Assembly: GCA_051294905.1 (NCBI GenBank)
Contig: CM119372.1
Span: 8,558,001-8,622,000, forward strand
DNA from: Botryllus schlosseri
Taxonomy: Eukaryota
Direction of reading: 5' to 3'
DNA length: 64,000 nt
Shown here: positions 2,993-62,000 of the stretch, one piece after another
Layout of the letters: each line of letters begins with the position of its first letter
How positions within the stretch are numbered: the first letter of the stretch is position 1
Notes under the pieces: model-generated
Told to the model about the DNA's origin: nothing
Database searches by the model: none
What the model saw: the letters and a program-made list of their open reading frames with translations, nothing else
Position numbers and translations under genes: made by a program

Positions 2993-3021
2993 GTCTGTTA
3001 ATTCGCTAAGCAATAATAATC

Positions 3022-8988: not shown

Positions 8989-10289
8989 TCCATTAATTAC
9001 GGCATCAAATCATATATTCCCTTTTGTGTTAAAATGAATGATACCGAACCTGCATCGAACAACAATTTCTAGCTAATGAGTGCATATCGTATGATGTGGT
9101 CAATATATTGAACTGGATTACATAACACACTCTCTCTCACTCAACCCTTAGCTTCTACTTGGCATGAACGTTGAACACGAACAAACAGCATGACTATGCT
9201 GTCGCCTGGACTTCGCCCCGACATTGCGAAACATGTAGTTCCTCACTCAATCAAAGAGCATAAAATCCCGTAAAATGTTAACAAAAACAGTACGTTCTGA
9301 TAAGAATTATCAGCTATCACCAGGGCGACCGGAAACATCTGTACGCAACGCGAAATACTGAATATTTTTATACAGTATCATACAGTCACCTTGGTCAGTC
9401 GCACCTGAAGCCTCGCGCTGAAAATATAGCCAGTCGACCATGTCTAATTAAACCAGCAACTCTGTATGTTTCCACTGTCGCTATCGCCGCATATTATGCA
9501 TGCGAAGAGGTTCGACTCGTTGAGCTATAATTTTAAATATTTCATCATCTTCAAATTCATGTTCATCTTCATGTTCAGTTCATACATCGACAATAGTAAC
9601 GGGGGCTGGCGCGGCTCTGAACCGACGAATTTCGACTTCTTCTTCATGCGCAGCAAACGCCTGCTTGCATTGTGCAAATATCGTTGATTTATATTTTAGA
9701 ACCCAATGCGCCACTATATAAACAGAAAGAAGACGCCATAGCACGGGGAAGTCTGTTAATTAAACAGCCAGCTCGGCCCAAAATAGAATTACAGAAGTAT
9801 GCATAGGCCGAGAGTGACGCTAAATGATTAATGCTGATGCATGGCATATTAGTGGAAGTAGAAGTAATGTCGCAAATTTGTACTAAATTTTCTTCAAGTA
9901 GAAGTAAGATAAATTTTCAGAATTCAAGCAGAAAACGCTGAAGATCAGCACAAGATAGCATGACTCGTCATCGATCATGATGAATTAATCACGCCTGTGA
10001 AACAGTATTTGTGAAACATGTTTACATTCGATAATTTCACCGACATTCCGACTGTCGTCAAGCATGTCATGTCCATATTCAAAGCAAAATAGAAGCACAT
10101 TTTACTGAATGAATACAAGTCTACGCTTGAGATTAGCGCAAAATGATATGACATCGATTTTTTCCTACCGACAGATGACACAGCATGTCACTTCAATTTC
10201 ATTTCTTGTCCAAGTTTATGATGTAACAGCTCCACTGCGGTCACTGTCTCGAAAACTTCAATGACTTCTTTACCTCGGTATCAAAAGTG

Positions 10290-13485: not shown

Positions 13486-14946
13486 TCAAAAGTTTTCCCG
13501 GGAGTTACCTCTGTTAGGAGGTCTGTTGTGATAACCACCACCTTGCATGTCTTGATTGGAAGCTGGCATTGTACCGTGGTATGGTTGTGATTGGACAGGA
13601 TGCTGATCTTGCGGATGTGAGCCATATGGCACAGTATCCCTCGGTGGAATGGTATTTTCGTACATATGAGGCCCAGGCAAACGTGTTGGTGGTGTATTGT
13701 AGTTGTAGTAATGTGAGGGCTCTTCTCTCCCACTTGGATGTCTGGGAGTAGGTGGTGCATAGTGGCGTTCGTGGGGATGGGCTGGTCCGGATAGGTTTGG
13801 ACTCTGTTGGTGAAGCAGCTGCTGACGCAAAAATTCATTCTTCTTTTCAAGTTCCTTCTTAGCGTGCAGTATGCTCTCTTTCTCTTGTCTTTCCTGATGA
13901 TAATCATCTTGAAAAGCTTTCAATTGCTCTTTCACAAACATCGCTTCATTTGGATCTGCAGTATTACGCAGTAGTTGTACTTCGTGCTGTAATCGCTCTA
14001 ATTCTGAATCTCGCTGGTATATGTTTAAATTCAGCTGTTCAATCATCGCGTCTCTGCTATCAGAGGACCGAGCAGATTTGTCTGAATGTCCATCGACCAT
14101 TGACATCCTCTCAACGTCCTCTTCCGCTCTTCCACATCGGACAGTTAATTTCTCGATTTTATCCTCCTGATCGCGACTGTGTTGCTTATGGTTCTCAATT
14201 TCTTGTTTAAGTTTTTGATTCTGGAGTCGCAAGTCAGCGACCATGGTTTCGTATTTTTCTGTCTCCGTCTCGGGTACGGAATTTTGCTGAGTGAAATTTT
14301 TTTTGCCATCGTCCCTGGCCTTTCTCAACAGGTCAAGCTCTGATTCGGCTTTAGATAATTTGTCGTACAGCCGTTCTTTTTCTCCTTTCAAATCATCGGC
14401 TTGGAGGGACAACTTTTTGTTATGAGACTTGATATCCTGTACTTCATTCAATGTGCGCTCCTTTTCTTCTGTTAACTCGGCCTTCAATGCGCTGACCTGC
14501 TGTGACAAGCAGTTATTTTCTTCAGCTTTCTCTAACACAAGTTGGTAATACCCTCTTACGAAAGATTCCAATTCCGCAATCTTATAATTCTTATTTTGAA
14601 TTTCGGACTGAAGTCGAGCGTCACCAACCATTGGGCTTACGCATAGGTCACTACCAGGGTGAATGTTGTTAGATGCCCCTGCAATTTGTTTTCGTAAGTT
14701 TTCACGGTCAATAACCACCTTGTTGTATTGGTCTTTTAAAACATCTAGTGCTTGTTGCTTTTCTCTCAATGTCTTGTGTAGTCCCTGAACCGTTTCATCT
14801 CTCTTTGGTTGTTCATTATTGCTTTCGCTGCATCCGTCTTGACATTCAATTTGCAGCTGCTCCATTTGTTGACCGACTTCCTCTTCGTGAAATACTGCCG
14901 TTGATGGAGAAGACTCTTTTATTGATTCACATTTCTTATCCTCCAT
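13486..14946 (-). CDS. Coiled-coil UBAN-domain protein, TNIP/ABIN-like (NEMO/optineurin family), single coding exon
   Basis: Long coiled coil, then VKEQLKAFQDDYHQERQEKESILHAKKELEKK (UBAN/CC2-LZ DFxxER-like), then a Pro/His/Tyr-rich tail with no zinc finger. First ATG at 14946, with an acceptor-like site about 30 nt upstream. Confidence 0.75.
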   Translation of the reverse strand: MEDKKCESIKESSPSTAVFHEEEVGQQMEQLQIECQDGCSESNNEQPKRDETVQGLHKTLREKQQALDVLKDQYNKVVIDRENLRKQIAGASNNIHPGSDLCVSPMVGDARLQSEIQNKNYKIAELESFVRGYYQLVLEKAEENNCLSQQVSALKAELTEEKERTLNEVQDIKSHNKKLSLQADDLKGEKERLYDKLSKAESELDLLRKARDDGKKNFTQQNSVPETETEKYETMVADLRLQNQKLKQEIENHKQHSRDQEDKIEKLTVRCGRAEEDVERMSMVDGHSDKSARSSDSRDAMIEQLNLNIYQRDSELERLQHEVQLLRNTADPNEAMFVKEQLKAFQDDYHQERQEKESILHAKKELEKKNEFLRQQLLHQQSPNLSGPAHPHERHYAPPTPRHPSGREEPSHYYNYNTPPTRLPGPHMYENTIPPRDTVPYGSHPQDQHPVQSQPYHGTMPASNQDMQGGGYHNRPPNRGNSRENF

Positions 14947-17079
14947 GCTAACCAACCACCATATCACAACAAGATCTGTTGTAATGCTACAAAAAATACG
15001 TTAGCAAGTCTGCAAATAGGGATTAATCATTAACTTGAAATACCGAATGACATAAATGTGAAGAAAATGAGGGCTTGGATGGGAAAATCATCCATCTGAA
15101 AAACTGATGACCAGATGGTGTGAAGAATGTTTAATATATCAGTAGTCACATGCCTCATATTTAGATGCTCTAGGCCAGCAATCAGCAGGAAGAGCTATTC
15201 CAACAGATTTGCCATCACATAAAAACAAGGGAGCGCCGCTAACCCTGTTTCATCCATATAATAATCATGACGCCACATACAGTTTCATTACGATACACAT
15301 ATTACAATATCTTAATGAAATGATTATAGTGATTTTAACTTCTTGTAGCGATCTGAATCTGCTATACGTGAAAACGGTAGAATTCTAGTGCAATATTAAA
15401 CCAACTTGAAAACTTCATGATGATAGCGCACCATGAGGCCGATGTTGTTGACCCTAAACACTGTAGCCTATCTTGAATAAATACAAAGGAACATATGCAT
15501 AACTCAATATTGTTTTATTCCATGATGTTAGCACTTTTGTTTCATATAGTCACTATAGCCGGGGTTTACCAGCGCGGTGCCAGCGGGCATCAGGTCACAG
15601 GTAAGGACCAGAAGAGTCGTTATTTGTGGCTGTAGCAATTATTCATGAGCGTTAAGGGTCAATGTAGAGAAGGGTTCCACGTGAACGGCTTTTTAACATG
15701 GGCGAGTCGACCCTAATGAACATGTGAATGCAATTTTCGACCAGAGAGGCGTTGCTTGTCTTCGCACCTATAATGTTTGAAAGGAAATCTAGATAATATT
15801 CCCATGCCTCCATTTGGATCTTGGCGCTCCGACACCCAGTGGGGGGTAATTCCAGCCCAAATCAACTGATGCAGATAACCACGCGTTTCAAAATAAACAC
15901 CAAATGCAATTCCCCAGCAACATAGACATATTTCAAACTGAACAAAAGTTATTTTGCGAAAATCCATTCAGCGGTTTAGAATTTATGGGGATTTGAAAAA
16001 GACCACTTTTTGTGCTCAGTCAACCGTGAAAAGGTATGATTTTTAGAACATGAACTTTAGAATTTTAATGTAAATTAGTCTTTTTCTATGGCTTTGAATG
16101 GAGTACATTTTCAGAAAGTACATAGCCTAACACTCATTTTGAATATTTTTATTATGATAATAACCTATCCGCTTGGGGTTAAAAGGGGGGCTAAAGGTGA
16201 GGCAGAAGTAAAATCAGTCATGCGTGATGAATTTTTCCAGGCTGAATTGTGAAAAAAGGTATACTTCAAATTTATTGAGTAAGGTGTCATATGAAAGCTA
16301 AGAATGAGCACTGTCCAATAAAAGCAATGCCACTAGTGATTTCAAGGATCTAAGCTGCCTTATAGCAAGAAAACTATATTCAGGTATTTTCCATGTGTCC
16401 CAAGGTATTTTTGGTTATATATTTTATACACATTCTTGACATGTATGATTGATTAATGCTTCATTAAGCATATTAAATAGCTTGGGGCAGGGCTTACTAA
16501 AATATGAAATATAAAAAGCAAGAATATAAAGTGAGTCGTGCATAGATTATTTAGATACATACCATCATTTCTATAAATGAAATCTTCAAACAGTCTGGCG
16601 GTATAGCAGCTGTGCATGGTTGAAAAATATAATTTTAATAAATACACTAGGCACATATGATTTGGTTTCATGGGAGTTATTCTTTGTAAGTGGCAAAGAT
16701 TTATCTTGCAAACTTGAAAGCTCAATGTCACATCTGTGATTTAAAAACATGGGATTTGACGACTCTGACCCGGCATAAGGATGGAATGCTTATGTGAACT
16801 TTTCAATGAGAACTATATCATTACATATTTTAAACTTTTGCTGTGTAGGCATTCTGACTAGAAATGTAGTACAGAAGTATGTCAGGGTTACATTTGCAGC
16901 AATACTTTTTATAGTATAAGCTTGATCAACAGAGACAAGCATCAACTACAAACCACTTTATATCATCACAAAGCTACAAAACTGCAACTGAAATCTTGTG
17001 ATCTATTCAAATTAACAAAAAATATCAACGTACCTGCAAGTGATAAGCTAAGAATTCGTGTAACAACGGAAGTGCTGTA

Positions 17080-38619: not shown

Positions 38620-39408
38620 ATGGCAGAATCCGTTGCGGATATTGTAGAAAGAATAATTGCTAACGGACATCTATGCTTGAATATAAGTCATCGAGGGCTT
38701 AGTGTTTTGCCCGAAGAGCTTGCTAAGATTCGGCACTTACGAGTTTTACTTCTCAACGACAATGAACTTGTGCTTCCACCAGAGGAGATCATGCATTTAT
38801 GCAGTTCTCTCGAAGAATTGGTTCTGGATGGGAACAAGTTCACCTTACTGCCAAGCAAACTAAGGGATTTCATTCTATTGAAGAAGCTTAGCTTGTGCCG
38901 CACACCAATTGGTACGTTGTCGCCAGACATCATGAGGCTGTCGAATTTGAGGGAACTGTGGCTTACCGAATGTTCGTTGGTAACGATTCCGAAAGAGATC
39001 GGTTCTCTAGAGAATTTAACACGTCTTGGACTACGGAAGAATTCTCTGCAAACCGTCCCAAAACAGATTGCTAATTTAAAAAATTTGAAATGGATATCTA
39101 TTGCAGAAAATAATTTGGAGACATTACCAAGCAATCTATATTTATTGTTAAATTTACGGTATGCCGATTTATCATGCAATAAGTTCCAATCTGTGCCACC
39201 GCCTCTACTAGATGTAAAAAATCTCAAAGTTTTGGTCTTGTCACATAATATGATTGAGGCAGTGAGTGATGATGAGATTCTGTCAATGTCTGACATGGTA
39301 AAGGTCGATTTGAGATGTAACATGATGAAGACTAAACCTGTACACTGGAAAGGCTTGGAATTCATATTAGTGGGTGAATTTCCAGTTGTAACCCTAAATC
39401 AATTGTAG
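38620..39408 (+). CDS. Small leucine-rich-repeat-only protein (about 9 LRRs), single exon
   Basis: Repeated LxxLxLxxNxLxxLPxxI motifs across 262 aa. Confidence 0.88.
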   Translation: MAESVADIVERIIANGHLCLNISHRGLSVLPEELAKIRHLRVLLLNDNELVLPPEEIMHLCSSLEELVLDGNKFTLLPSKLRDFILLKKLSLCRTPIGTLSPDIMRLSNLRELWLTECSLVTIPKEIGSLENLTRLGLRKNSLQTVPKQIANLKNLKWISIAENNLETLPSNLYLLLNLRYADLSCNKFQSVPPPLLDVKNLKVLVLSHNMIEAVSDDEILSMSDMVKVDLRCNMMKTKPVHWKGLEFILVGEFPVVTLNQL

Positions 39409-39742: not shown

Positions 39743-40866
39743 TCAAAAATATGTGATTGGCGAGTCTTCGGTCAGACCAGTTTTTACCCCGGCCAATTCG
39801 ATGTCCTGTTGCAGAGACTGAAATATTCTCAACTCGATGTAGCAGTCACATCCGATCTTTACCTGTATGACAATATCGCATGAACGATTGCTGTCTGAAA
39901 ATTAAGTTCGTATTGAATTACGGTATACCACCTTTACAAAGTAGTTCGTTCCTGCCACCACTTGTGAGGAATATTTGGTAGCCTCAAACAGATCGAAATT
40001 CTGTCCTGTTTTCTGCTCTGCTGCTGCTTGCACCTACGGAAAGAGTAGATGCATTTGTACTAGCTGACACACAAAAATGAGAATGATTTTGTGATGAAAG
40101 ACGCGAGAATTCAGATGTATAGGCACCGCCCAATCCAAATTATGCAATACTTGAATATTGAGCTATTTCCACTTTTCAAAAGATTGTTATGAAGCAAAAT
40201 CACTTTGTGTGAACAGTGCGCATGCATAATTCCGCCTGATGTATTTTATTTGTCTCTTACAACCACCACAATCAATCAATCAGGTTTGTTGACCCCTAAC
40301 TGTGGAAGAGTATTCCTCATTCCTTGCTACTGAATCAATTTTGAAGTGAGAACGCAGTGAACATTGTGTAGCCGCGTGCCGTTTGACTTCGATTTCTGGC
40401 ACCCTTTTTATGTGATAATGTCTGGATTTCTCACCCAGCGTTTATTTCTCTTTTCAGCAAGTTTGTGCATTTCTATTTGAATACTAAGTTGAATATTTGG
40501 TAGATTTCACAATCTCATTTTGATTCAGTCTTCCTATATTTCATAGTACCGGTATTGCAATTCTGAGATGCTTTGTAAACAACAACATCATTTGAAATTC
40601 TCCACTTGAGAATGAGATACATGTACTTCAAGTGTAAAAATCGTCATTGAACTACAATATTCAATCTTGCCTAAATATAAGGTATTTCCTTCAAAATTGA
40701 AGCACTGAAAATTAGATGCCTTCAAACATTTGTTTATGCCCATCGTTATCATATTTCACATACCCATTACCCATCTTGATGAAGTTATAGTTACCTGGTT
40801 CACCATTTCCCGTACATCTTCTGTCACTGATTTCTCAGGAGACAATCCACCCATCATCGTAGTCAT
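39743..40866 (-). CDS. Type-1 cystatin (stefin, cystatin A/B-like), 97 aa, 3 exons
   Basis: Exons 40866-40795 ([12 protein letters not shown]...), 40033-39932 (...[14 protein letters not shown]), 39862-39743 (VKIG...RIFQSL...ITYF*). QVVAG motif, N-terminal GG, no signal peptide. Absent from the ORF track. Confidence 0.93.
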
Positions 40867-40951
40867 TATGTTGAATCTTTGAATTCCTTCTAGTTCCTGT
40901 TGAATTCTCTAGCTGTCTATTCTTAAATGATCTGAAAACATTCCATCATCG

Positions 40952-40958
40952 ATTTATA
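40952..40958 (-). promoter_or_regulatory. Candidate TATA box of the cystatin gene
   Basis: TATAAAT on the minus strand about 90 nt upstream of the ATG. Confidence 0.45.
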
Positions 40959-41208
40959 CCGCTCACTGTTGTGACTAAGTGAGCTGAGAAAGGAGATTAT
41001 TGAAAACAACAGGAAGTGTTGATTTCTGGTTGAGAGTTTCATATTTCCTTGGTTTTGTATACGAGTCACAAAGAAACATGAGCAATGCTATTGTCAGCTT
41101 CCACAATTCAATATACGTTTCGTACATTTTTATTGTGAGCCCTTTATTCATCATAGATCTGACAAAAATATGTTGATTTATGCTGGCTGAGACACGTTGA
41201 TACACATA

Positions 41209-44200
41209 ATGCCTCCTAAAAGGCAAACCGCGAAACCTAGTGCACCTGTACGTAGGGCACCCGGCCCAAGACAAGCACAAGCCAAAACAGTTTCAGGTGA
41301 GTTCAGACCACGATATTGAATAGTGAATGATCTTTATACCTCATCATTATACCTGATGAATGTGCACTAATTCATTTCAAATTCATGTCTCAATTACTGG
41401 ACATGTACTCGACCTCTAGACCATATCATCTACATAGGTGTTTTCATCAGATTAGCAGCCTTTACCGCAATAGGCCAAGCATATCACTATATTCTTTATC
41501 CTTGGTGTGGCAAGGGTGGTCACTGGTCAGTTACAAAGTAATTCTACTTTATCAAACCACTCAAGTAGGTTTTGTATACTTGGACTACTTGATCTAGCAT
41601 GTGATTATGACTTTAGACTACTTTCATTTGTACTTTAACATGTTAGCACGCCAAACTACTGTCCTCTTACGATTCAAATCTTGTCACGTGGAAAGAGGTA
41701 GGATATTTGGATCAATAGTTACAACCCTGTATCACAGTAATACAATATAACTCCAGAAGTTTCACCAATTTAAGGCATCAACGTGATGTATTAGTGGCAC
41801 TGATGATTCCTGAATGTAATCACTGGCAATCGTCTAACAAAAGTCTGCTATACCTTGTCCCAATCTACTTCTACAAATTACTTACGTCAGAGATTTTCAG
41901 ACTTTGATCGAGTAGGCTACTTCTTAATTTACTTTATTCATGTCTTGAAAATCAAGACTTCTTCTCGTAATTGAGAAGAAATTTATGGCATTACTTTTAC
42001 TTGTCGGATACATGAGTATCATCAATGTCTTCTTAATTTAGTTCTGTCATGTCTTGCAAGTAGAAATTTACGACATTAATTCTACTTGCGCTTGAGTAGG
42101 CCCACAATCAATATGTAATTTGACCATATCTGAGATTACATCATGCTCATGCAAATTTTGAAGGCAACACGTAAGGCATGAGCACAAACGCATCTGTTAG
42201 TAACGTGATATTAAACACTATATATAGTCTTTAGTATCCTAATAATTCGTGGTTATGATGGATCAAAGTAAACTATATAGTCGCATATTGCATTACTCGT
42301 TATGGGCATGAAATAGGTGCACCTGGTAAAAAAGTTGCAGCAACTGGAAAGAAACCCGCGGGTGGTGCGAAGGCTCCTCAAAAAAAGGAAGAAAAAAAGG
42401 GACCATCTCCTCAAGATTTGGCTGCGATCACTATTCAAAAAAATATCAGAAGGTTTGTTTTTGCCACTTAGTATGGATAAAAACCCGGCATCAAAATTTT
42501 GCACAAATGTTGTGGAACTTGGGCTAGTATTAAGAAAAGAGAACTCCTCAAAACCATCTATTCAATGTACAATGGACATGGATACAATTCGTGAGACTGA
42601 ACAAACTACAAAAACTTTCACTCCAATAGGCTATGTCTCATCAGTTCAAACATGAAGACAAAGGCCTAAAATTGGCTGTTCAAATATCCTAATATAATAC
42701 AGTCGGGCACTGGTAAAATCAGGAATATCATTTCAATTGTGTCAGATTCCTAGCGAGGAGACAATTGAAGAAACTTCAAACGCAGAAGGAAGAATATAAT
42801 GACATGATTGAAAGATTGCAGAGAGAGGTGAGATTATTTTGTCTCCACAGCACCCAGAAACAATATATAATATCTGACCACATTTCTCATTTATACAAGT
42901 GCTCAAGTACTCGCTTTAGAATGATTCTAGTACTATCGGTGTGTTCAATCCAATTTCAACTGAGATTTAGTAATACCTGAATGGATAGGCTTACATTCCT
43001 ATTCACTTGTAAAAGGAAGTCGTCTACTTCTAAACATTTATAATTCTACTTCCAGAAATTTTAAGCTCCTCAAAGTCGGGACTGCTAGTCATGCCAGAGC
43101 AGGGGTTCTTAAACTTCTTTGATCAGCGACCCCGTCAAGTTCTGTGGGCGGTTGCCTGTACCACCAAAATTTCAGAAGCCAATGAATGGCGGGTTATCGC
43201 ATCAAGCTCAACTCTATTTTGGCTGTACCAGGCCCAAAATAAGATAACTAATGACTAGACAAGGTAGTCACAGTCCCACTCACTATGTCATTCTCAAAGG
43301 AAAATTTGGTTATGGAGTTTCTTGACAACGTATTGCCCTTGCACAGACCCCCTAAAACTACCTTATGGTACCCCTAATTGGTTCGTGGACCCCAGTTTAA
43401 GAACCCCTGCGCTGAAGAAAGAGCTCTTTCATGTCTTACAAGTATGCTAATACTTACGGATCCGATCGTAACAGGATCCGACATCCAATACCCTTGGGAA
43501 CGCTTAGCCTTCACAGGTGATATATTTTGTGCAGGCTTTCGTCGCCATGGTGAAAGCAGAGCAGGAAGCGGCAGAAAAGCAGCTTGCTCGCGAAGATGAA
43601 GAGCGCAGGAGGAAGATAGAGGAAGCGAAATGCAGGAAACGAATGCTGGAGGCCGCTTTCGACGGTGATATTGAAGAACTCGAGAATATTCTCAAAGAGG
43701 TTGCTGTTTGCGACAATTCAAGAAAATTAACGTGACACATTTGACATTATATATTCTGTCAAGGTTTCGGATTTGGATGATAAAAATGGTATTCCAAACG
43801 ATGAGATCGGACGTGTCGTCCGCAGGAATCATCAAATGGCCATCGTTGAATGTGAAGACGCCAATGAAAACACTCCATTGTCTGAGGCTTCTGGTGGAGG
43901 TAGTGTTGACGCTATAAAATTCCTAGTGGAAAGAGGTAAGGAAGAACATGCAGCTGTATATCAAGAGTTCGAGACCGAGAAATATAGTTTTCTATCGAAT
44001 GCAGGCGCGGATGTAAATACAGTAGGTGCGTGGGGTCGGACTCCTTTATACAGGGCTGCATTTGGCGGGCATCTAGACGCTGTTGAAACGTTATTGCAGT
44101 ACGGAGCTGACCCGAGGATATACGCCCAAGATGGAAATACTCCTGAACATGTAAGAACTTTGTATGTTCTATATCAGTGTTTCGTGAACATATTTGCACA

Positions 44201-47200
44201 AAATCCTCTTGGGTAACGAACCAGCTACCAAGTCCCCCCCACCCTGACAAAATTTGTTTTTGCTTATTGCATGCACAAACACCGTTCGTGCTCATGACCG
44301 TTTGTGTTGATCCAATTCATAGTCAGCTCGTTATGCCAGTCACAACTCTGTAGAAATTTAAGGACAAACACAATTCAAGAATAAAATTAGTATAAGGCAA
44401 TGTCAATTCCAAAGTCATGGTGCTGCATCAGTAGCCTACCTCCGCTCTCCGACCTTGCTGGCTAAGAATTCTGGTCAGTAACTGATTGGTGAATGAACAA
44501 TGAACATCTACCTACAGAGATCGTTGGTAATGATTTCCGATTGAAAATGACATTGTGCTACCGAAAACCACCGCCACATCTGTTCTTACTGCACAGATAG
44601 GGCTACTTATTTTCGAATATTTTAAACGAACCACCCTGTTGTAAAAATACTTCCTGGACTTTTGCAGGTTAGCTCTGTTGAGGCGATTCATGAAGTTTTA
44701 AAAAACTGGGACATCACCATCACCGAGAGCTTAAAAGAAAAGATGGAAGGCGAGAGAGAACGAAGAAGAGCAGAAGATCAAAAGAGGAAAGAAGCAGAGG
44801 CTAGCAAGTGTGTTCATGATTTTTTTCTTCATATTTCATGACAGTGTTAAGTGGAAAGTCAGACCTCAGTCACATTGCTCAGATTCTGGAATATCGGCCT
44901 TCCATTCCATCTCCTGTTTAAGACTCCATTCTGATTGTGTAAAGTGGCACGACTCACCATCTAACTCCAATTTTGAAGATTTAACATGAATCGACTGAAA
45001 TATAGAATTGCAATTCCTCCAGATGACTGGATGATAGTAATTTTTGATAATCCTGTAGGCTATTTCTCATCGGGTCTGTCTCTGTACGCCTCTTTCAAGA
45101 CGTTTTTCCATTTTTACTATATTCATAAGCCAGGGTGGGAGTTTGATTGATTCACTTCACCAAGATATTTGGACTCCTTCGTTCCCCTTGTATCACAATC
45201 TTGTGGTGTTCGATCTGATGAAATTCTCAAACTGATCTGAACAAATTTTATGTCAACCTTCACAAATCCCAGGCTGCAAAACGAACTGGAAGAAATACAA
45301 AAGCAATACGAAACAGCACAGAAGGTTCTACAAAGAGCATACATGGAATTGGAAAAACGCATCCATGAGCATGACAAGTGCGCATTAGAAGCGCCGGAAC
45401 ACGCAGAAATCACATTGCAGGTTGTATTTGTGATTTGTTGATGAGTATTTTTGGACACTGCTGCTGTTCTCCAGCCTTGATCACTGTAATACTTCGGTAA
45501 ACTATGAGTCCTAAGCAGAGGTGGTCAATGTAGTAACCCCTGGTACTACAGTAGAAGTCACGCCATAAATTTCTACTCAAGTAGAAGTAGCGATTTGCAA
45601 GTAAATAAAAAAGTAAGTATTCTTGGCCTAGTTTTGCCTAAAAAACTGAAAACTGTCAAGTAGAAGTAATCTAGAATCATAAACCACTTGAGACAAAATC
45701 TACTTGAAGTACTTTGAAAAGTAGTACTTAGTTGTTGACCACCTCTGGTCCCACCACAAGTCTTGATTGCATATTATTGCTCCTTTAGCACAGTATTTAG
45801 GCAATTTTTACCCGTATTCGTTTTTGAATAGATTTCGCTATCACGAATGACCCTGTTTCGCTTCACACAAGAAATTTTGGAATATATTGTGAGAATAAAA
45901 CTTCATTTTCATCACTCGCCCTTTTTTTCTTATCTTCTGTTACATTTAATTTAGTATACATGTATCTCCTATAGGCCAAGGTGACATGCCACCTCATTTT
46001 TGTCGCTTGTTTTTTCATACTAACTTCTTTCACTTTTCATTCAGTGTGCATGCGTCCTCTTACATCGCCTAGGCCAGGGGTGTCAAACATACTGAGTAAA
46101 TGGAAAATTTATCGCATTATTCAGCAGCTTTTTAACAGAAGTTGAGATTCTTAGTAATAAGTACTGCGACGTAAATATTATAACTCATCAAGACAGCAAA
46201 TGTCGAAAATGTTCATAGGCCACCTTATAACAATCTGTCGGCAGTTTTGAGTTATCACTCAAGTAACCATCAGCAATGAGTCGACGACATTGACACTACA
46301 TTTTGAGAAGGCAAAATAGTACACACTCAGTTCTGAATTTTCTGAAAAAATGGGCCAGATAATTGTTATTCACAGAGGCGGAAACGACAATCCGAAACCG
46401 TTGCATGTAAAATACATAACTGTATTCAATAGGTCAATTATCGTATTTTTGCCAACTCCATTGTTTGTTGGTCGAATAGAGTCCTCAGCCCTCATGATCT
46501 GTGATAGAGTGTATAATACTATTTTGCATAGCGTTGGTAAAAACCATTCCAGTGGAAAACAAAGATATGGATTTCTACGTAACATATTGGAATTATTTGA
46601 CTGGTCCGGCCCGTGAGCGATTGATGTGCTTGAATCCGACCCGCTACCCAAGTTGAGTTTGACACCCCTGGCCTAGGCCAAGGTGGATGTCTGATTTCAA
46701 AGACTACTCCAAGTCGTTTCGACACCTTCCTATCTTTTCATTGTATCGCAATTTTTGTCGTGTAATAAACTGATAAAATTTGCTATTAAACCGAACCGAA
46801 GGTGGGTGTTTGATTGAAAGGCTACTCCAAGTCGTTTCGACTCCGACTCCAAGTCGTTTTGACTCCGACTCCATTTTCATTTTATCGCAATCTAGTGGGG
46901 TTGATGGAATTATTAATAAACTGCACTGAACTGCAACTAGAATTTCAACATCTTTCCATAGCTTTCCAACATTACCAGAGTGCATATGAGAGATCACATT
47001 AATTCACAGCTTGACCTGTTTGCAGTCTGTTCACGATGCTGAAGGAGAACTGGAAATCGCAAAAATGCGAGCTGATAAGGCCAGGAGCAATTTAGAGCAA
47101 GCACGGCTGCGATTAAGAGAGCAACAACATGAAGGCAAGTTAACTCAAACAAACCAGTTTCTTTGATATAATATCACTGTATGTTTTTAGGTGGAGATGA

Positions 47201-47935
47201 AGCATTACCAGGTGTTAAATGCAATATAAGAGAACTAGACGAAGTCTTGATGAGAGATGTGGGCAACAGAATTTCTGATTCTGGCAAATGGCCCATGTTG
47301 ATTGATCCAACTGGACAAGCAACGACCTTCCTGCGTTATCGAGATACCAACTACCTGTGTGCGCTCAATCCGCAACAAATGCAACCCGATGTGATTCGAC
47401 TTGCATTGCTTGGCTCCATAAGGTACGAAAAAAATCTTTTCTAAATTTGAAATCCAATTGGGAATCCTACAATTATCATGTTATATAAAATGTTACTGAA
47501 TTATTTTAGATTCGGAAAGCCAATGGTTGTTGATATGCTAGAAGTCGACATGTACGATACCATAAGTGACATTTTTGATCAGATTTTACCTAACTTGTTA
47601 TCGGACATTATGAGCAAGGAACTTCTGACACAAGAAGGGTAAGTTTCTAACAGTAAGATGGCAATCTGTATTAAACAGAACAGTCTATCTAAGATCGAAT
47701 TTCACCTCATTCTTGTTCGTGTCATACTTCTCATCTTATCAAGATACACTTCATGTTTCACAGATACATGAAATTGGTAAAGCCTGATGATGGAGATTCC
47801 TATCAGAAATCTAAATTCCAGCATCACAGAGTTGATAAATTTCTGTTTGTACTAGTAACAAAGAACAAATTCCCTTCTGATTTTCTTCTTGAAAGTACAT
47901 ATGCAATAAGAATCGTCCTGCCTGACGGTTTATGA
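41209..47935 (+). CDS. IQANK1: IQ motif and ankyrin repeat domain-containing protein, 12 exons
   Basis: Exons 41209-41296, 42317-42452, 42746-42827, 43535-43699, 43764-43935, 44005-44150, 44668-44807, 45273-45420, 47026-47134, 47191-47422, 47510-47638, 47764-47935. IQ motif AAITIQKNIRRFLARR, ankyrins (NTPLSEASGGG, GRTPLYRAAFGGH), coiled coil, C-domain WPMLIDPTGQATTFLRYRDTNYL. Confidence 0.88.
43100..43409. mobile_element. hAT-like MITE in an IQANK1 intron
   Basis: TIR caggggttcttaaac...gtttaagaacccctg; no clear TSD. Confidence 0.8.
45516..45747. mobile_element. Short member of the AGTAG-rich CAGAGGTGGTCA family
   Basis: TIR cagaggtggtcaa...ttgaccacctctg. Confidence 0.85.
45981..46800 (+). 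mobile_element. LINE 3'UTR copy interrupted by a MITE
   Basis: Matches the 10441 and 57450 copies; ends ATTAAA-CCGAACCGAA. Confidence 0.75.
46075..46670. mobile_element. hAT MITE
   Basis: TIR caggggtgtcaaac...gtttgacacccctg; perfect TSD gcctaggc. Confidence 0.92.
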
Positions 47936-48556
47936 AGCCTACACATCTTTATGTCTGCTTATTCTTCTGCATTATTGCTGCTGGGTTATAATGAATGTTT
48001 ACCTGAAGCTGAAGTATTTATAGAGACAATTTTCTCGTCACGATTGACCAGCGTGATACTGTTTAGACAGAAATGAGTAATCGCCACTGTTACCCAAATT
48101 GCACGTATCCTTAATCCTTATACTACTTGTGTATCATCCAACATTTGATGAGGAGCCTAAATATGAGCTGCTTTTGTGCATTATCAAGAACGTGATTCGG
48201 GCGTTTTTTTTGTGGATACCAAATAAGACTGAAGACTGCTATTTCGAGTGTGCTCTGTTTCATTCAATTACCCATATTGGTTACATTTGACACGTCCATG
48301 AGTTGACCAGGAGGACTTATAAGTTAGTAAAGTTACTGCCAGCGCCAGGTATTGCAGTGAGCTAATCGTCAGGCAGTCATCAATGCCCTCGCTTTTTTCT
48401 TAACTATTCATCGAAGTATTTGTGAGCTGAGCAATTATATAACTAGTTGACCGCGGGTATTTTTCAGTTGCGCTCCATTTTACCGTAGCTACATACTCGA
48501 CATGCAACCAAACCAACTGGCAACTGCGAAGGCAATGACCAAGTTCTGTTGGTTGT

Positions 48557-48614
48557 TCATGACCAAAGTCACTCAACTATGACATATGACATAGTTGAGT
48601 GACTTTGTTCATGA
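48557..48614. repeat. 25-bp-stem hairpin (one mismatch, 8-nt loop)
   Basis: tcatgaccaaagtcactcaactatg-acatatga-catagttgagtgactttgttcatga. Confidence 0.9.
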
Positions 48615-48680
48615 CTAATTTATGTTTACAATAATTTCCGGAGGGGGCGCTCGAGTAACAACACTCGAGAAAAGCCTACA

Positions 48681-48694
48681 GTTGCCATAGCAAG
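48681..48694. promoter_or_regulatory. RFX X-box-like motif
   Basis: GTTGCCATAGCAAG versus consensus GTTGCCATGGCAAC; about 100 nt upstream of the ATG at 48791. Confidence 0.6.
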
Positions 48695-48790
48695 CAGCAT
48701 CTATAAGTAGCACCACTATGTAGCGAATAGGCTATTACTCGGCATCAATTAGACCCGATTTGCGGCGATTCTATCCTAATTCAAGTAAGC

Positions 48791-51646
48791 ATGAGTAGCA
48801 AACCTAAAGGAAAAGTTGCTGTGACAAAAAGGGGTAAAGCTCCAGCGAAAACACCGGCGAAACCCGCAGTGCAGGCCGCACGCAGGTAGTTCCAAATCCA
48901 CGAAGAGTACGTTAACGGTGTGATAAAGCAAATCTTGCTCAAAATTCATAGATACATATTTTTTCAGATAAGCCGGCTGAGCCTCAAGTCTTGGAGGGTC
49001 TGAAATGTTCTCTTAGAGATATCGATAAAGTATTAGTTAAAGACCAGGAAGGTGATATCAAGAAGTCAGGACGATGGGCTTTGCTCGTTGATACTAATGA
49101 CCGAGCCGTCACGTTTTTGCGTTATCGAGACACAAATTACCTCTGTACTGCCAACAGCAAGGATATGGAACCGAATACCATCAGACAGGCACTAATCGGC
49201 TCTATCAGGTACGTATCAATTGTTATATCGACTTAATCTGTGAAAATTTGAATCGGGTATACCGCTATAGCAAAACAAACCTACGATGGTAATTGCGACA
49301 ACTCCAGTGCAAAATCCCCGGTTTGAGATGGCAGTTATATGGCCGATACACAATTATATCCTTTTACAGATAGGCCTAACATGCCCCGTAGAGATCACCG
49401 TATCTATCAGTGGCGGAATTCACACAGCAATACCTTTTACACAGATTTGGGAAGCCATTCGTTATCGATTTCCTTGATGCTGACATGCTGGACTATGTGA
49501 AGAAACAGTTGGACACTATCCAGCCGAATTTGGCGAACGATTTATTCAGTAAAGAAATTCTTGCAAACGAAAAGTGAGTCGAAAATTTTAGCAGTTGCAA
49601 AGTGATATCCTACACCTACGGTCTCCGCAAGGCTTTGTTTTCGCGTCTACGAATTCTAAATATAGGCATCACGAATGCTACTAGTAACAAAGGCTGCGGC
49701 GTGACGAATCTACCCGAAACGTGAGCGAGCGATATTCTATGTGTTCTTAGCAAACTTCATTGTCTATAATTGAGAGTAACCATGTAAACAAAGGAACAGC
49801 TAATACAACGTTTGTCATCTGCCGAATATAGACCAAGCCTACACATGATATTAATACAGCACGTATATGACGGATCGTCTCAACTTGCCCCGTCCAGCTC
49901 AGTTCTCGTCAGCCCTATATCAATCGTTACAATGAGCCACATACAATATGTATTGTTAACCATTATACGCAATGTGATCTGACACTTTTTATGCAAACCT
50001 TATTCATATCTTTTTCTAGAAAGATGATGTCATTGATTCATTCCTACTACAAGTCTCTGCTACTCGTGGTCTATCTGAAACATCTGTTATTTTTCATGCA
50101 ATTTGTTTGAGATGAACCTTTTTCTGTTAACATTTTGCTATTGTTTATTTGAAGTGACTGCATAAGAAAATGACAGTTTTTTAATGGTTCTGCGGCCAAA
50201 GCAACTTGAAGTTAGAATATAGTGTCACTGTCAATTAAAGAGCTAAATTACAATACCATCTCAACATCTGGGAGTCTTTTTTCAATTGTGAATCCAATAT
50301 ACTATTCGCGTGGTCAAACAAATCGCATATTAACTAATACTACCAGTGTTAGGTGTGAATAAGTTGTTTCCGTTTTCACATTCTTATTTCGTCATGATAA
50401 CATCATGATCGGTGTCCCGCGATAATTTCGCACTGCATAAAGACTTCCACGTTTACAACCTGATGAAACAGTGGAACTCTTAATGTTTGTGAAGAATTAA
50501 ATTTGTAAGGTTCACTCTAAGCGGGACGGATTCCGATTGTGAAATATTTGAGAGTCGGCACTCATATATCAGAAATCCAACGTAGACACGCATCGTGTAT
50601 TAATTATATGTGATTGCCCGCTCGCACGGTGCAAAAGTGTCAAAAGTGCCTTTCCGGCGGGGCATCAAAATAGATCGCTGTTGATAAATTTATGGTGACG
50701 TGACCAGTATTGGTCTCATCTGGATGATATAAAGTTTGAATATAGATAACTAACCCGCGGATAGATGCGAACACGTGATTGCACGATTGCGAAACATGGA
50801 TAAAGCTAACAGTTTTTGGTCGCTTCCTATACAAATATGGTAATCTTATAGCTGACAAACAGAGCGCAAAATTTATTAAAACCGCTCTTAAACGAAAGCT
50901 ACTGTAGCGCTGACTCAGAAAATACATATTATAATCTGGTAACGGCACTAAAAATTACCCGAAAATTGCTTGCTCCGAACCCGAACAATCTAAGCGCCGC
51001 AATACTGTGACATATATACAATGGTATTAACGCAGCGTTCTCTGATTGTGACGCCATAGCACGTCCCATCATCGTATTACAATATCAGTTTACGGAGCGA
51101 CCCGGAATTACTGGTCGTATCCAGACTTTTACAACTAGATAATCCTAGCTGTCTAATTATGCCAATTATAGCGAAATGTAATAATGTAGTGTAATTCTAA
51201 TATAATTTATGAAATGTTTTCGTGCTCTTAATTTTAATTCTAATCAAATTTTTGGTTTTCCTTGCTGTTCAGTGTTCAGACATTTGCCATTCTCATGCTT
51301 ATGAGAATGAAATCTAATTTGATATTGTTGTATTACTTCGTAATTTAATCAATTTCCAAGTTTTTGCGCATTCAGTAAATCTCATTTGCAAAAATACTGT
51401 GTAGAGCTGTGATTCAAATTCTATTGTATATCTTACAAGCCATTTGATGTAGACATGCAGTACGAGTGATTTGTTGCGTTGTTTTCCAGTTATATGAAAC
51501 TTGTTCGCGATGAAGATGGGGAATTATATTCACATAATCACCAATTCGAATTTAAACCCGAGGAATTTTCGTTGATTATCGCCTCAAGCAGAGCCGAACC
51601 GCTGGAGAACCTTCTGCGCACTTTCTACCCCGTGAGAATTGAATAA
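48791..51646 (+). CDS. Short IQANK1 paralog containing only the C-terminal domain (no IQ, no ankyrin), 4 exons
   Basis: Exons 48791-48833 (donor uncertain), 48968-49208, 49445-49573, 51490-51646. GRWALLVD...VTFLRYRDTNYL...IRQALIGSIRFGKPFVID...YMKLV...YPVRIE*. Intron positions and phases equal those of IQANK1 exons 10-12. Confidence 0.8.
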
Positions 51647-51769
51647 AGCAATGGGGACTCCTATGGACTGTCTGGCGAAACGAGAGAATAGCTCAAGAGA
51701 AAAAGAGCCAGACAGCATTGTTCAGCATTGTTGCGTCCCAATGCCAATCTCCATAACAATGAAAAATTC

Positions 51770-52380
51770 GAGGCTGATTGTGGGAGTTCCAGGTCCACGA
51801 GCGAAATAAAATTTATATTTTCGTAATCAGTGCAGAGTCAGCTTTCGATTGATACCTGTTTTACCAAATTTAATGCTCGGCAAGCCGGTCAAAAGTGCCC
51901 GTAAAATTGCCTGTAGCCAAATGGAAATTGTGACGTGATACAATTTCACTGAGGCGTGAGATTTGCCTGTGTCGACACCATATAGGACACTATGGTAAAA
52001 CACTATGCTCTCACTATCGTACGCACTTGCTCCTGAGCTGCGCCATGTTATTCCAGACGGCATGGTTACGTCATCTTGCTCTCGTTTTGCGAGACAGCAT
52101 GGTTGCGTCACAATGCGGAACTCCATTACAACACAAAATTCGATGCTGATTTTGGGGGTTCCAGGGCCAAGAGCAGAATAAAATTTAAATTTTCGTAATT
52201 AGTACGGTAGCAGCTTTCCATTGATAGCCGTTTTATCAAATTTAGCGCTCGGATAGCAGATCAAAAATGGCCGTAAAATTGCTTTTTGCCAAATTGAAAG
52301 TGAGACGTAATCAAAATGCAGTGAGCCGTCCAATCTAGTTGTGTCCACACCATTTAGGACACTATGGTATGACATTATGA
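51770..52380. repeat. Diverged direct duplication with about 370-bp period (TE-derived)
   Basis: 51770-52010 aligns with 52145-52380 (gctgatt...gttccagg...aataaaattta...cagctttc.attgata). Confidence 0.75.
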
Positions 52381-53345: not shown

Positions 53346-56300
53346 TTATACCAGATAAGGCTCCAAGAAAAGCGAGAACACTACGTGAATAACTAGATGA
53401 GACAGTCCGATTAATGCTGCCGGTTGCAATTTAATTCCGCCGTTAATGTCACAGATGGTCGAATTGTCCGATGATGTTGAATTGGCACAAAGCCCGTTGT
53501 CATCTCCGTAACCAGCTGGACAGGCGCAAGACGGATATCCTGATTTATAAATGCTTTGCCCTGTATGTAAATAAGAGATGACTTCAACCAATGTTGTGAA
53601 ATTCATCACTCTCTATATTTACAACAGTAGCCTACATGATATTCGGCCTACACATATAATCCAAACATTTACCGAGATACCGTTGCCCACATGTCATGTC
53701 TGTTGTAGCGAGGCAATGCTTCCTTAATCAGGTATCATTCTAATCCAATATAAGGGTTATGTTTTGCGCTAAGCTATTTCCAGTAACAACCATCACAATC
53801 ATACGACAACGATAATGTCAATGATCCGGGCTGCAATAATACTGAACATTACAACATTCATAGCAGGTTCGTTTGCTGCTGACATAGCTCGATGTCTTTT
53901 TAGCGCCTCATCTGTAAACAACTACACATATCTATTCAATATGCATTTGCATGCCCTATATCAGTGGTGTCCAATCTTTCGGCCAAATGGCCACATTCGG
54001 TTTGCGAATGCGCAATTGCGCATGCCACGTCGGTGCTGATTTGTAATCTTGTAAACTGGCTCTGTCTTATAATTTTGAGGTAAACCCTCACACCGAAACC
54101 ATAATCTTAGAAATATGTATTATCCTCTTCTACGATTATAAGAACAGCAGAAATATCAGGAATAGTCAACAAGGTTTATACCAGTCGACATTTCGATGCA
54201 ACGATTGGTGCTGTTTTTTCTCTAACAAGTTTGGCGACACTCGGCAAGATAGACGATGTAGCAATTCTACGCGAGTTTTCCAGATGACTTTCGGAAATTA
54301 GTGATCAGATATCAGTCTGAAGTGGTTCTATAATGACCTAATGACACAAACAATGACATGATGATCAACTGCGACTTGTGGTTAAAATTAATTATAATTA
54401 CAGCGGCCTTCTGCATTGCACAACCGCAATCGTGGACAAGTCATAGGAAAAACCTATGCTCGTGAGATCCCTCAATCACAAAAATCTGACTTCATAGCAG
54501 CTGCAAACGATAAATTTACTAACTACGACAATATTTTCACGTTTCGGTTTGCTATGTCGGATTGGTATTCATCTATAGCCCGCCATCATTTCTGACCTTA
54601 GCCGTTTGCACAATGACCTATGCCATTTTAGAGCGTGTGACACGAGATTACTAAAACGGGAGTCCGATGCAGGAAATCGGACATCAGACTCAATTAATTT
54701 TAGTACAATTAGCGAGAAATCATGCTTCTTATTATTGTTACTGAAACTTTGTCAAATTTGTCGATTATATACTATTACTCACTGATATTTTCAAAAGCTA
54801 CAGGGTGCCACAGTATATGAGCGTGAAAGAGCCACATGCGGTTTCGAACCCCTTCTATATCTCTCCCGCCGTAGATCATAATATACGTAGTCAAAGAGTA
54901 AACGTACCTTGCGTATTTCCGCCAGGTGCATAATTACACACGAATATTATTGCATGATCCCATTTTTCTTTTCCTACGTACACTTCGCCACAAGTAGACG
55001 CACCACAGCCAATTAGCTCGCTTTTTGCCCATACAACCTATGAGAGATGGAATATTTACTATCTCTGGAATTCGGGCCTGTTATCCGGCAGTGCATGTAC
55101 TGTAGGACAATCGGAAAATTTATCACACCACCGTGTGGATCATGAAGTGATGTGGTGTAACAAAGGTGTCCAAACTACGACCCGCAGTCAATTTTTCTTG
55201 GGCTGCGGCAAGTAGGCCTATAGAAAATGACCATTCTTCGGAACTCATGAACCAGACGCCCACTTACTATACACGTTCATGTGCAGCATGAACATATTAG
55301 TGTTTGTACATGTACATTTTATTTACATATTAGTGTTTCCCCATGAATATCTAATTGGCGTCAACAATCTGGTCGCATACTTCATGAATTCCATATAGCA
55401 GTGCTTTTCAACCTTTTTGAGCTCCATTCGCACTTTTTTGTAAAATAAATTTCAGTCGCACAAACTATAACCTAAAATTGTTATACAAAATGAAGATGAA
55501 GATACTTAACATCGTTTTGTTCAGGTGTATACAACAAATTGGCTACTATGTAGCTTAAGCTATAAAGTGTCTTATTAAAAAGGCAACTTTTTTCGCTCGT
55601 TCTGATGTCAACTCTTTCACTAAAACCCTTCTCGGCCAAACAAGTCGTTGGGTACAAGAACGTCTACTAGTGCTACTAGTGCTTGGATGGCCAGCCCTTC
55701 AAATCTGTTCTGCACACCTATCAAAAATACAGCGTATTTTTAGTGAGTGAATAATGTTTGCTGGCAGAAATCGTTTTTTAGAGCTGACACAAATGTTCCG
55801 AAGGCTCCATTTTACCGAAAGGGTGAAAAACTCGCATGTTTGTGTTGACTGTTGAAGCTTTTGTCTTATGTCTTATGGAACATAAGGTCCAAAGCGATCA
55901 AGGAGAGAATGCACATTAGAGCTCGCTACCTTATGATACGTTGCTCCAGCTTGTGTTCTGTTTTTTTACGACTTCCCATTTTCTGTCTCGCGAGTAAATG
56001 AGAAGAGCAAATAATCTCACGCTACCGTGTGTTCTGCTCTTTAGCTCAATCTGACTTGAGAATTCATAACAGTTTTAACGGCAATGCAGATTTTTAGACT
56101 ACCACCAAAATCGGAGTTTTCGTGGCATCTCGCTACCCGAGCCTCACCCATGAGAAGGAATTCATTTTTAATATTACAATAGTATTTACAATAATATTTT
56201 ACGGACATGTATGACATACAGAACTCACACACCACAATTCTATACCCAACACAGCTCTACAAAACATGTCTGATGCATGCGATTTCAAATTATGGTGAAT

Positions 56301-59045: not shown

Positions 59046-62000
59046 CTGTATATTAAACGGTCAATAATACGATAAAGTGTGTGAGAGCGAAACTGACTTT
59101 CTCTTGGCATTTGATGTCTGACAGCGACTGTTATAGGAGCATTTTTCAAAATAATGTCCTGTTCACATAATTCACCGACCAGTACACTCTCAGCGGAAGG
59201 GGTGTGTATTCACACCCAAAAGGTGATACACGAAAACAGAACCTAACTGAGAATTAAATCACGGTTGTAAATCCTGCGTGTCTATACGTCCGTAAGTGCA
59301 TGTACCTTCTTATACGTCCCCATACGTGTGAAAAGCATCATTTGGATTGATTAACATGATGTTTCTGATTTACACCGCGGTATCAGTCTGTGGTAGGTTC
59401 TAGGTGTGAATACTGTGCATGCTATATTACCTCAATACCTCCTCGATTTATGATCGTCATATTTCTCTTGGGTTACTTCCCTTTACATCTCAATTTTCGC
59501 GCTCAAGTTCATTTTACAAATGGACATGTTCTATGACATTTTTTATTAACATTTTCCTGTCATCTGGTTTTCTCTAGAAAACTCAAGATTGCACCCGTAA
59601 TAGCCACGCAGTGGAGAGGTAGTGACACAGAATTGGTGTCCAGCTTGCTGAAAATAGACCAACGTCACGGTTGTGAACCGACTTGACATCTGTTATTGTC
59701 GTACCGCGGAAAAGGAGGTCCCAGAACAAAGACATGTGGAAGTTCTGATTCAAGTCTATAATAACCTTTAGCATGCTGCGGGAGTATATTGTCACCCAAT
59801 GCGTGGTTATGCAGAATCATTGGTTAGCGCGAATTTGAATGATTCTGATGGGATCCGTGAGCTTTTGAAGTTTCATGCGAGAAAACTGTGAAAAACTTTC
59901 GGAGCCATTGGTGTACGTATACCTCACAATACAATAGACTCGTGCATGAAAATACTACGAAGGGGCATCAATCACACTGAATCAGTAATTTTGTTTTATA
60001 ATAAATAATGTTCACAGGACTAGCCTACAGGGCTGTGGAGTCTTGTTTGCAATGTTACCTAATTCGGTTCGCTCCTATCGGACGATTAAAAACAGGTTAT
60101 CAACATTTCAGTTGCCCGCGCAACGGTTCGTAAATCTCATGTGTCCCTTTGGCCGAAAAAGTTGCCCACCCCTGATATAGATAAAATTAGACATTACTTG
60201 CAAATTACAACTCAGTTGCACAGGGGAAGAAAATCGCAATATGCCTTTTCGCGATACAGTCAAAATTGATGCAATTTTTGGAATTATACCATGATACTGT
60301 GACAAAGCAAATGCATCGGCTGGTTTTGTAAAATTGTAAAAATGATGTGAACGATGCTTCCCACTTGACAAAATTAAAAATATTTGGTACAAGTATACTA
60401 AGAACCCTACTCTACACGAAGAACACTGTTTGAAATTCGAGAGAATGGTTGTAAAAGAAGTGCATTATGACGAAGCATATAATTTATTGAAGTTTATTTG
60501 AACTTATATGGAACAGGTGAACTTAACCCCACCAAAAATTGACGTGTAAGCGTAAAGAAAATGGTAGAATTGTAGTGTAGAGTAATCTGAACTTGAGGGT
60601 ATTAATGTGGTGTACGTGTAAAAAGGATAATTGCTGGGAACAACCATAAATTGACAGAAGAATAATTCGTCGGCCATTTTGAATGAGTCGAAATATGAAA
60701 TCGACGCCGCGGCTATAATCAGCGAACTGCGGCAACATTTTTAAATCTGGCCCGATAGAGTGAATATATCCGTTAAAGCTTGATGCGATGCGAATTCAGG
60801 AAGTTATAAGGAGTCGAATTTCATAATCTTTGCCATACGCTAAACTCGATACCAAAGAGATGCGATTATAATAAAGTACCTAGCCGGCCAAAGGCTCGTC
60901 ACCAATGTTCCCTATAATTTTTCACGAGCCTGCGCAAATACGCCAACTCACTGCGCAGGCCCTTGGACAGCAGTGCGCAACCAGCCCCTAGAGAGTGATA
61001 AACAGAACTTCTGGGGGACTTCGCCCGCAAGACTCACCTCAGGCTACACGCTTTTCACCGCTACTAATCAACTATGTCTGGTCTTCGTTTAGTGGGCGTT
61101 CCGACTAAACGCGCGAAGCGCCGAAAAATTTCTATAGCTTAGGATCAAAACAGCCAATATCATCGGGAATTGCGTATATTGCTATCAATTTTAATCCGTT
61201 CTATGCTCACGTAATCACATTTACAGGTAAAGCTGATCGAGTGAGATGTGTTGGAAAAGGTAGGATCCCTAAATATAATAAATATCCTCGGGCGTACCCG
61301 TTGGCATAATGACTTCTTTACATCATGCTATTTTGTGACCTCCTATCTGATATGCCAAAAGATATTGAAATATGGACACAAGTAATTTTGATTCCACTAT
61401 GACGATATGGTGACATATTGTGGGTTTACTACAAGACAGACATACATGCACGAGAACGCACTTGAAACCAAAACATGCGATCGATATAGGCCTACCGCGG
61501 TAAAACACTGATGTGACGTCTTAATACCGGCAATGCGCTCGTCACTATCAAGACATACAGTCAGATATAATGATACGGATATTCAAGTCTGATTGAAAAC
61601 GGGAACAAGATCAGCGACCTTATCGACAGAGGATACCCGTTCAAACGGATCGAATAAAATCACAAATTTGTGCTGCTTAGAAGCTGATCTAATGCAACGC
61701 CGTACAGTGCTGCATTCCCCGATCAACGTTGGCAAAGGAATGAATATCTTCAACAATATTGGTGCTTGTACTTGCATGTTCTGCATATTGTACGATATCA
61801 CCATAACGTGGTCAGATTCGCCCGATGGAAGTGATGACTTCGAAAATTCGCGGCATGTAATTTTACAGTAAATCTTACAATATATTCATGCTACGCGGAG
61901 AAGAATATTCATTAGTTTCCCGCAGTTAATTTCGAGCTAGCCCATTGTTATTTATAACTTTGTTAAGCCATGTTATTTCGCCATTTCCACTAAGGATTGC

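Follow-up and report, generated by a model that had tools for sequence, protein, structure and literature searches.

Immediately downstream of IQANK1 in Botryllus schlosseri lies a second run of exons that resembles the last three exons of its neighbour. This locus raises the questions of whether these exons form a gene of their own, how such a gene would have originated, and what its product might do. We analyzed a window of 64,000 nt (assembly GCA_051294905.1, contig CM119372.1, positions 8,558,001 to 8,622,000 of the forward strand), to which all coordinates below refer. The exons almost certainly belong to a real and expressed short gene, and the best explanation, which we favor on balance, is a functional mini-IQANK1 gene that would encode a non-catalytic docking module derived from IQANK1.

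The parent gene IQANK1 occupies 41209-47935 on the plus strand and comprises 12 exons encoding 572 aa; the RNA joints listed include six of its introns. Its parts follow in the order basic tail, IQ motif, ankyrin repeats (also recognized by Pfam), coiled coil, and AAA5-like domain. Exon 1 (41209-41296, plus strand) ends in phase 1, and the C-terminal domain is encoded on the same strand by exons 10-12 (47191-47422, 47510-47638, and 47764-47935; 232, 129, and 172 nt, respectively). The IQANK1 of the tunicate Clavelina is the nearest named relative (70% identity over the domain). Intron 8 contains a nested repeat (46053-46817) that is very deep in RNA; reads and contigs join position ~46061 to 46671 and indicate other copies of the repeat without the inner 600-nt element.

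Several further observations concern the surroundings of the two genes. A single-exon leucine-rich-repeat gene (262 aa, 38620-39405, plus strand) is located just upstream of IQANK1, and RNA depth at 40800-41183, far above that of IQANK1, may represent the 3' end of this gene or another transcript. Near the start of the window, four long intron-free frames lie close together (1-2430 and 3010-6102 on the plus strand, 7480-9009 and 13489-15000 on the minus strand), corresponding to an EHMT-like protein (Cys-rich region, ankyrin, SET), trifunctional GART, phosphatidylserine decarboxylase, and, with a weak match, an MCC/USHBP1-like coiled-coil protein. In animals, such genes are usually rich in introns, as are those located 40 kb from the intron-free cluster. 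An exon at 54894-55037 (minus strand) shows a weak CAP-domain match (E 0.0016), and a Cys-rich frame on the same strand (53349-53612) may belong to the same gene.

The short gene starts with an ATG at 48791, 855 nt past the IQANK1 stop, where the original prediction, made from the sequence alone, had expected about 850 nt. RNA was aligned over 40800-52300 from four of 24 listed runs: X24 (bulk reads, ~6% read), X22 (single-cell, ~3% read), X1 (contigs, taken as RNA by guess), and X21, which stems from another organism and, with 2 of 30 bins covered, is uninformative. Four exons on the plus strand are delineated. The coding part of exon 1 (48791-48906) encodes a basic K/A/P-rich tail, and RNA covers a transcribed leader as far as 48742 or beyond. 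Exon 2 (48968-49208, 241 nt), exon 3 (49445-49573, 129 nt), and exon 4 (51490-51646, 157 nt, carrying the stop) are the counterparts of IQANK1 exons 10, 11, and 12, respectively. Exon 2 encodes the first half of the AAA5-like domain, and AATAAA signals are found at 51642 and 51805. All three introns are spliced in the RNA of two studies. The joint 48905->48967, an intron of 61 nt, is covered by 15 X24 reads from 12 starts and one X1 contig; the joint 49205->49442 (shifted by +3 in the exon coordinates) by 9 X24 reads and the X1 contig; and the joint 49573->51490 by 33 X24 reads, 3 X22 reads, and the X1 contig.

The end of exon 1 differs from what had been proposed. Donors at 48833 and 48885 had been considered; RNA places the exon end at 48906, and neither donor occurs among the 15 joints listed (43 weaker ones exist besides). 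The donor at 48833 scores 1.2 bits versus 5.6-11.4 for 13 training donors. On the letters of the window the first intron is reported with ends AG..CA; given a G at 48906 in the reads, we infer a GT..AG intron at 48906/48968. Furthermore, 4 nt at 48877-48880 are missing from the transcripts, namely from 21 of 30 X24 reads (14 starts) and from the one X1 contig. Without these 4 nt, exon 1 has 112 coding nt and ends in phase 1, the spliced junction to exon 2 is in frame, and the reading frame amounts to 212 aa instead of the expected ~190. The phase mismatch that had been noted between exons 1 and 2 is thus due to the 4-nt difference together with the donor at 48906.

Other features hold as first described. 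The spliced four-exon model contains no IQ exon and no coiled coil, no Pfam ankyrin match was obtained on its four exons, and exons 2-4 are free of stops. The N-terminus is Lys-rich, with 11 K/R versus 1 D/E among the first 44 aa. RNA depth is about fivefold that of IQANK1: listed X24 sites have 33-62 reads in the short-gene coding exons versus 7-14 for IQANK1, X24 junction reads amount to 15, 9, and 33 versus 2-4, and X1 contig depth, a poor measure of level, is 160-348 versus 23-37. Beyond these two genes, no other copy of either was found in the genome, a count to be read as a lower bound.

Paralogy of the two genes is evident from gene structure and protein alignment. Exons 2-4 mirror IQANK1 exons 10-12 with common start phases (1, 2, 2) and aligned junction positions, and 76 of 187 aligned residues are identical; over the domain, identity is 44%. 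Profile-profile comparison of the C-terminal domain yields a probability of 100 and an E of 1.4e-72. Divergence is strong: synonymous sites are saturated (pS 0.82, pN 0.40), and at the DNA level the two loci share one 97-nt match of 70%. In addition to the domain, the three exon boundaries, and their phases, both genes have a basic N-terminal tail; the short gene differs in the absence of IQ motif, ankyrin repeats, and coiled coil, in faster evolution, and in its own exon 1 and X-box-like site. Since its tail resembles the IQANK1 N-terminus, internal deletion would fit better than a copy of the 3' part only. The exon-1 peptide itself is too low in complexity for proof of homology, as 1036-1369 of 2000 shuffles score equally high against IQANK1 exons 1-2. 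The interpretation as an old duplicate under selection is supported by splicing, saturated pS, and an excess of synonymous differences (see below); a 3'-only copy would fit less well, and a one-off event does not fit.

The latter point follows from the distribution of short forms. Conservation of IQANK1 extends from sponges to mammals, and relatives also occur in probably non-animal sequences. Searches that gave 85 matches of 160 candidates and listed 150 of 214 revealed complete short forms in the amphioxus Branchiostoma, the tunicate Clavelina, the hemichordate Glandiceps, the sea urchin Strongylocentrotus, the molluscs Solemya, Plakobranchus, Gigantopelta, and Batillaria, the brachiopod Lingula, the nemerteans Lineus and Tubulanus, and the annelid Ridgeia; that of the bryozoan Bugula is partial. 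Their lengths range from 195 to 230 aa (270 in Lingula), and a basic K/A/P-rich tail of 30-60 aa joined straight to the domain is common to the window gene and the invertebrate short forms. This architecture occurs in eight animal phyla; the count leaves out the Siedleckia-labelled P0184, probably host contamination, and P0112, which lacks the N-terminus. No vertebrate or cnidarian short form of the same build is named among the matches listed. An IQ-like pattern is present in 0 of 17 short forms versus 30 of 38 long forms, and an MPPK start in 13 of 17 versus 23 of 38. The short clusters of the ESM Atlas include some headed by Mollusca (83 members), Oomycota (118), Chordata (64), and Chlorophyta (63), of which the last three may be either whole genes or fragments. 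Presence across bilaterians thus points to a recurring architecture and not to a one-off partial duplicate.

Database entries of 195-230 aa labelled 'IQANK1-like' (XP_066291839.1 of amphioxus, XP_076819063.1 of Clavelina, XP_077997734.1 of Glandiceps) share this architecture; they are automatic annotations only and at best 37-45% identical to the window gene over the domain. Apart from this label, no description of a short IQANK1-like class was found in the papers searched. Apparently, the short gene belongs to a widespread, database-annotated, and undescribed class of IQANK1 derivatives.

Linkage, as read from accession numbers and contig data instead of coordinates, varies among the nine other species with both forms. 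The two genes are adjacent in two of them, the tunicate Clavelina (CAK8672610/12) and the bivalve Solemya (ScPMuIL_006891/92). In Lingula (one of nine) both forms share small scaffolds, in three they are located on the same chromosome (Lineus, Tubulanus, Glandiceps), and in three they are not (Branchiostoma, Plakobranchus, Ridgeia). Lineus longissimus carries three near-identical short forms (P0039, P0343, P0344) on its IQANK1 chromosome, a recent expansion.

Did the short forms arise once or repeatedly? In a tree of 67 domains, selected from 221 that were nearly complete (170 columns, with unsettled bootstrap values), the window short form falls into a clade of 12-13 short forms (97/89, 98/87), apart from the tunicate IQANK1. 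The short forms of Ridgeia and Tubulanus group with the IQANK1 of their own species (100/99 and 99/96, respectively). AU tests reject all 18 short forms as one clade (p 0.03), and, with 24 sequences, fixed species trees, and two models, a single clean duplication (p 0.002 and 0.007). Other groupings are not rejected: window short and long form together (0.10), a tunicate clade (0.31), window and Clavelina short forms (0.36), and the 16 short forms that remain when Ridgeia and Tubulanus are left out (0.18). In the fixed-tree tests, the best fit is given by repeated origin in which the tunicate short forms arose once. Among 34 long forms, that of the own species is closest for six of ten short forms; for the window short form it ranks 4, for that of Lineus 15. 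Judged from these sequence comparisons, a single ancient duplication with no subsequent exchange is rejected, and repeated birth or gene conversion would fit. As IQANK1 exon 1 ends and exon 10 starts in phase 1, which is also the phase of the first joint of the short gene, loss of exons 2-9 from a duplicate would yield the short architecture in one step, and such an in-frame shortcut would make repeated birth easy.

The strongest rival, to which we concede a substantial chance somewhat short of even, is one ancient bilaterian duplication followed by conversion from the neighboring IQANK1, or by replacement, that reset some lineages; the function of the short gene would then be old and distinct, not reborn. 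An ancient clade with four reset lineages is not rejected (AU 0.41 and 0.13), a scenario that was named after the tree had been seen. The large short-form clade speaks for this rival, as does the window short domain, which scores 10.6 bits better on the short-form than on the long-form profile, while the long-form profile is the better match for 11 of 14 diverged long controls. So do the adjacent accessions in Clavelina and Solemya and the shared scaffolds in Lingula, but adjacency is also expected from repeated tandem duplication. The failure of the single clade and of the clean single duplication counts against it. Moreover, fast branches may attract one another in the tree, and recent conversion is absent in the window, given the pS of 0.82.

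We then consider the domain that all these forms share. IQANK1 exon 10 matches Pfam AAA_9 (PF12781, dynein AAA5) with E 6.9e-4 (19.2 bits), and oyster IQANK1 does so with E 2.6e-5 (23.8 bits). Among 16 short forms, 14 match at E<=0.05 (best E 7.2e-7; amphioxus short form 18.6 bits), and none of the 16 has an ankyrin match. The scores shown, 18.6-23.8, fall below the Pfam gathering cut-off of 27.4, and the exons of the window short gene, scanned singly, gave no AAA_9 match. Searched against the PDB, the short-form profile best matches dynein heavy chain 3579-3638, weakly (E 0.03-0.05) and alongside histone H2B tails. Exon 2 gave no PDB sequence match and, alone, no usable match in the ESM Atlas, and the long-form profile only generic ankyrin matches among the best 60 of 347. 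Some UniRef names carry a dynein label, and hence the resemblance is already known at the database level.

Structural comparison relied on the AlphaFold model of the amphioxus short form P0092 (pLDDT 82), in which the tail is disordered and the domain has an alpha/beta structure. Dyneins come first in the Foldseek ranking, with no match at E<=0.001. With VIA-align, 5 of 48,161 chains reach Z>=8, all of them dyneins (Z 8.8-9.4, rmsd 3.1-3.7, 116-132 aligned); other AAA+ proteins follow at Z 7.8 and below, and one of the top five ranges is a different dynein AAA module, not AAA5. A Walker A motif (GxxxxGK[ST]), which would follow the first core strand, is absent from that position when 16 short forms are aligned, and exon 2 has none either. 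On the relative's model, the domain is an AAA+ alpha/beta subdomain closest to dynein, and to AAA5 by sequence; a non-catalytic AAA5-like fold is very probable. According to PMC4359366, dynein AAA5 has lost nucleotide binding and is the linker-docking site. The likeness comprises the alpha/beta subdomain fold, the match over the first strands, and the lack of a nucleotide-binding motif, whereas the short-gene domain is free-standing, with no ring, no small helical subdomain, a helical insert, and 10-19% identity. In a model of Clavelina IQANK1 (pLDDT 85.5, pTM 0.49) the domain is attached by a low-confidence linker (pLDDT<50 at residues 397-399), a flexibility which would allow it to stand alone.

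Could the domain act as a decoy of dynein AAA5 that tunes or parks motors by binding to the linker or to a regulator of dynein? We consider this doubtful. Dyneins are indeed the closest sequence and fold matches, and the matched yeast range 3333-3519 includes the AAA5 linker-docking residues K3438, R3445, and F3446 given in PMC4359366. However, identity to dynein is as low as stated above, and the sequence match spans ~60 residues only. Between strands 132-135 and 200-204 the amphioxus model has helices alone, and the linker-docking hairpin of dynein AAA5 is at the position of this helical insert.

The allele of the window deserves separate consideration. The 4 nt at 48877-48880 (plus strand) constitute a tandem duplication that is in the window, not in the transcripts; the resulting frameshift ends the reading frame at codon 33. 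It is probably a private null allele, and an assembly error is a lesser but serious possibility. In the coding part, RNA and window differ at 13 places, of which 8 are synonymous versus 21.6% of sites (p 0.002; pN/pS 0.17), where the 13 are composed of 12 from the best 40 of 332 rows and an inferred one at 48906. That the short gene is decaying in this lineage, with the frameshifted allele common or fixed and the copy dispensable, appears very unlikely. The truncation at codon 33 and the fast evolution of short forms would agree with decay, and the tandem duplication resembles a real slippage mutation more than a sequencing error. Yet the intact allele occurs in two independent studies, the X1 contig equals the window at five leader positions that differ in X24 and still has no insertion, and the coding differences show the synonymous excess. 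RNA cannot give the frequency of a null allele, because nonsense-mediated decay would deplete its transcripts. For annotation, the frameshifted allele would lead to the short gene being overlooked or mis-spliced.

That exons 2-4 double as an alternative 3' cassette swapping the C-terminal domain of IQANK1 is hardly credible. The phase-1 end of IQANK1 exon 9 would permit an in-frame junction with short exon 2, IQANK1 depth is low, and 43 weaker joints exist beyond the 15 listed. Yet among these 15 there is neither an exon 9-short exon 2 joint nor any other intergenic one, the IQANK1 contig contains exons 10-12 of IQANK1 itself and stops at 48017, depth falls to ~1 at 48096-48479 between the genes, and the short gene forms a separate, about fivefold deeper transcript with its own exon 1.

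A ciliary role is somewhat more likely than not, as far as an X-box-like motif and a dynein-like domain permit such a link to be drawn. The RFX X-box-like 14-mer at 48681-48694 (plus strand) lies 96 nt upstream of the ATG, close to the ~100 nt originally noted, and has one mismatch to the consensus used. At <=1 mismatch it is the sole match in the window (expectation 0.14 per window; such a match arises anywhere in 9 of 100 shuffles); at two mismatches there are 4 matches versus 2.64 expected. The 96 nt compare with a typical distance of ~100-250 bp upstream of the coding sequence in C. elegans, according to PMC2873420. A palindromic X-box-like site, assigned to no gene, was also observed at 60111-60124 on both strands. 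Against a ciliary role, solved structures, the 96-nm axoneme models included, yielded no IQANK1 chain, and the short forms diverge fast. A link to Chlamydomonas FAP79 was considered and dropped, as the source text describes FAP79 only as an ankyrin protein.

For the functional mini-IQANK1 gene that we favor, the following course of events may be envisaged. IQANK1 would have been duplicated and the middle exons lost in frame, joining exon 1 to exon 10 (both phase 1), no later than in the ancestor common with Clavelina; across animals there would have been more than one such birth, or an old copy repeatedly overwritten by its neighbor. The short protein would be made in RFX-driven ciliated cells, where its docking module may bind the same surface as the IQANK1 domain itself, without calmodulin control or ankyrin-bound cargo. 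The basic tail might hold it on an acidic partner, e.g., microtubules, and the net effect would be to buffer, cap, or replace IQANK1.

A role of the short form as a same-site competitor of IQANK1 is tentative and rather unlikely. Short forms are much less conserved than long ones (mean identity 38% versus 54%; 38% versus 70% between Clavelina and the window), a difference that speaks against a common, conserved binding surface for the two. A complex prediction of Clavelina IQANK1 55-573 with short form 36-209, computed without alignments, scored 0.00 twice and carries no weight either way. Improbable, too, is the broader proposal that IQANK1 was trimmed repeatedly and independently by way of the in-frame exon shortcut, and that eight or more phyla kept the product because, as a free and catalytically dead dynein-AAA5-like module, it regulates ciliary dynein, or the target of IQANK1, independently of calcium. 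Among the listed papers that mention IQANK1, none addresses the function of the protein.

The natural minimal version, which many phyla have kept or formed anew, draws attention to the dynein-AAA5-like domain as the part of IQANK1 that does the work, and the mini form offers a small soluble construct for partner finding. Together, IQANK1 and the short gene provide a testable case of recurrent gene birth versus concerted evolution. Should the broader, improbable proposal be true, IQANK1 and its mini form would constitute an unrecognized pair of dynein-derived ciliary regulators.
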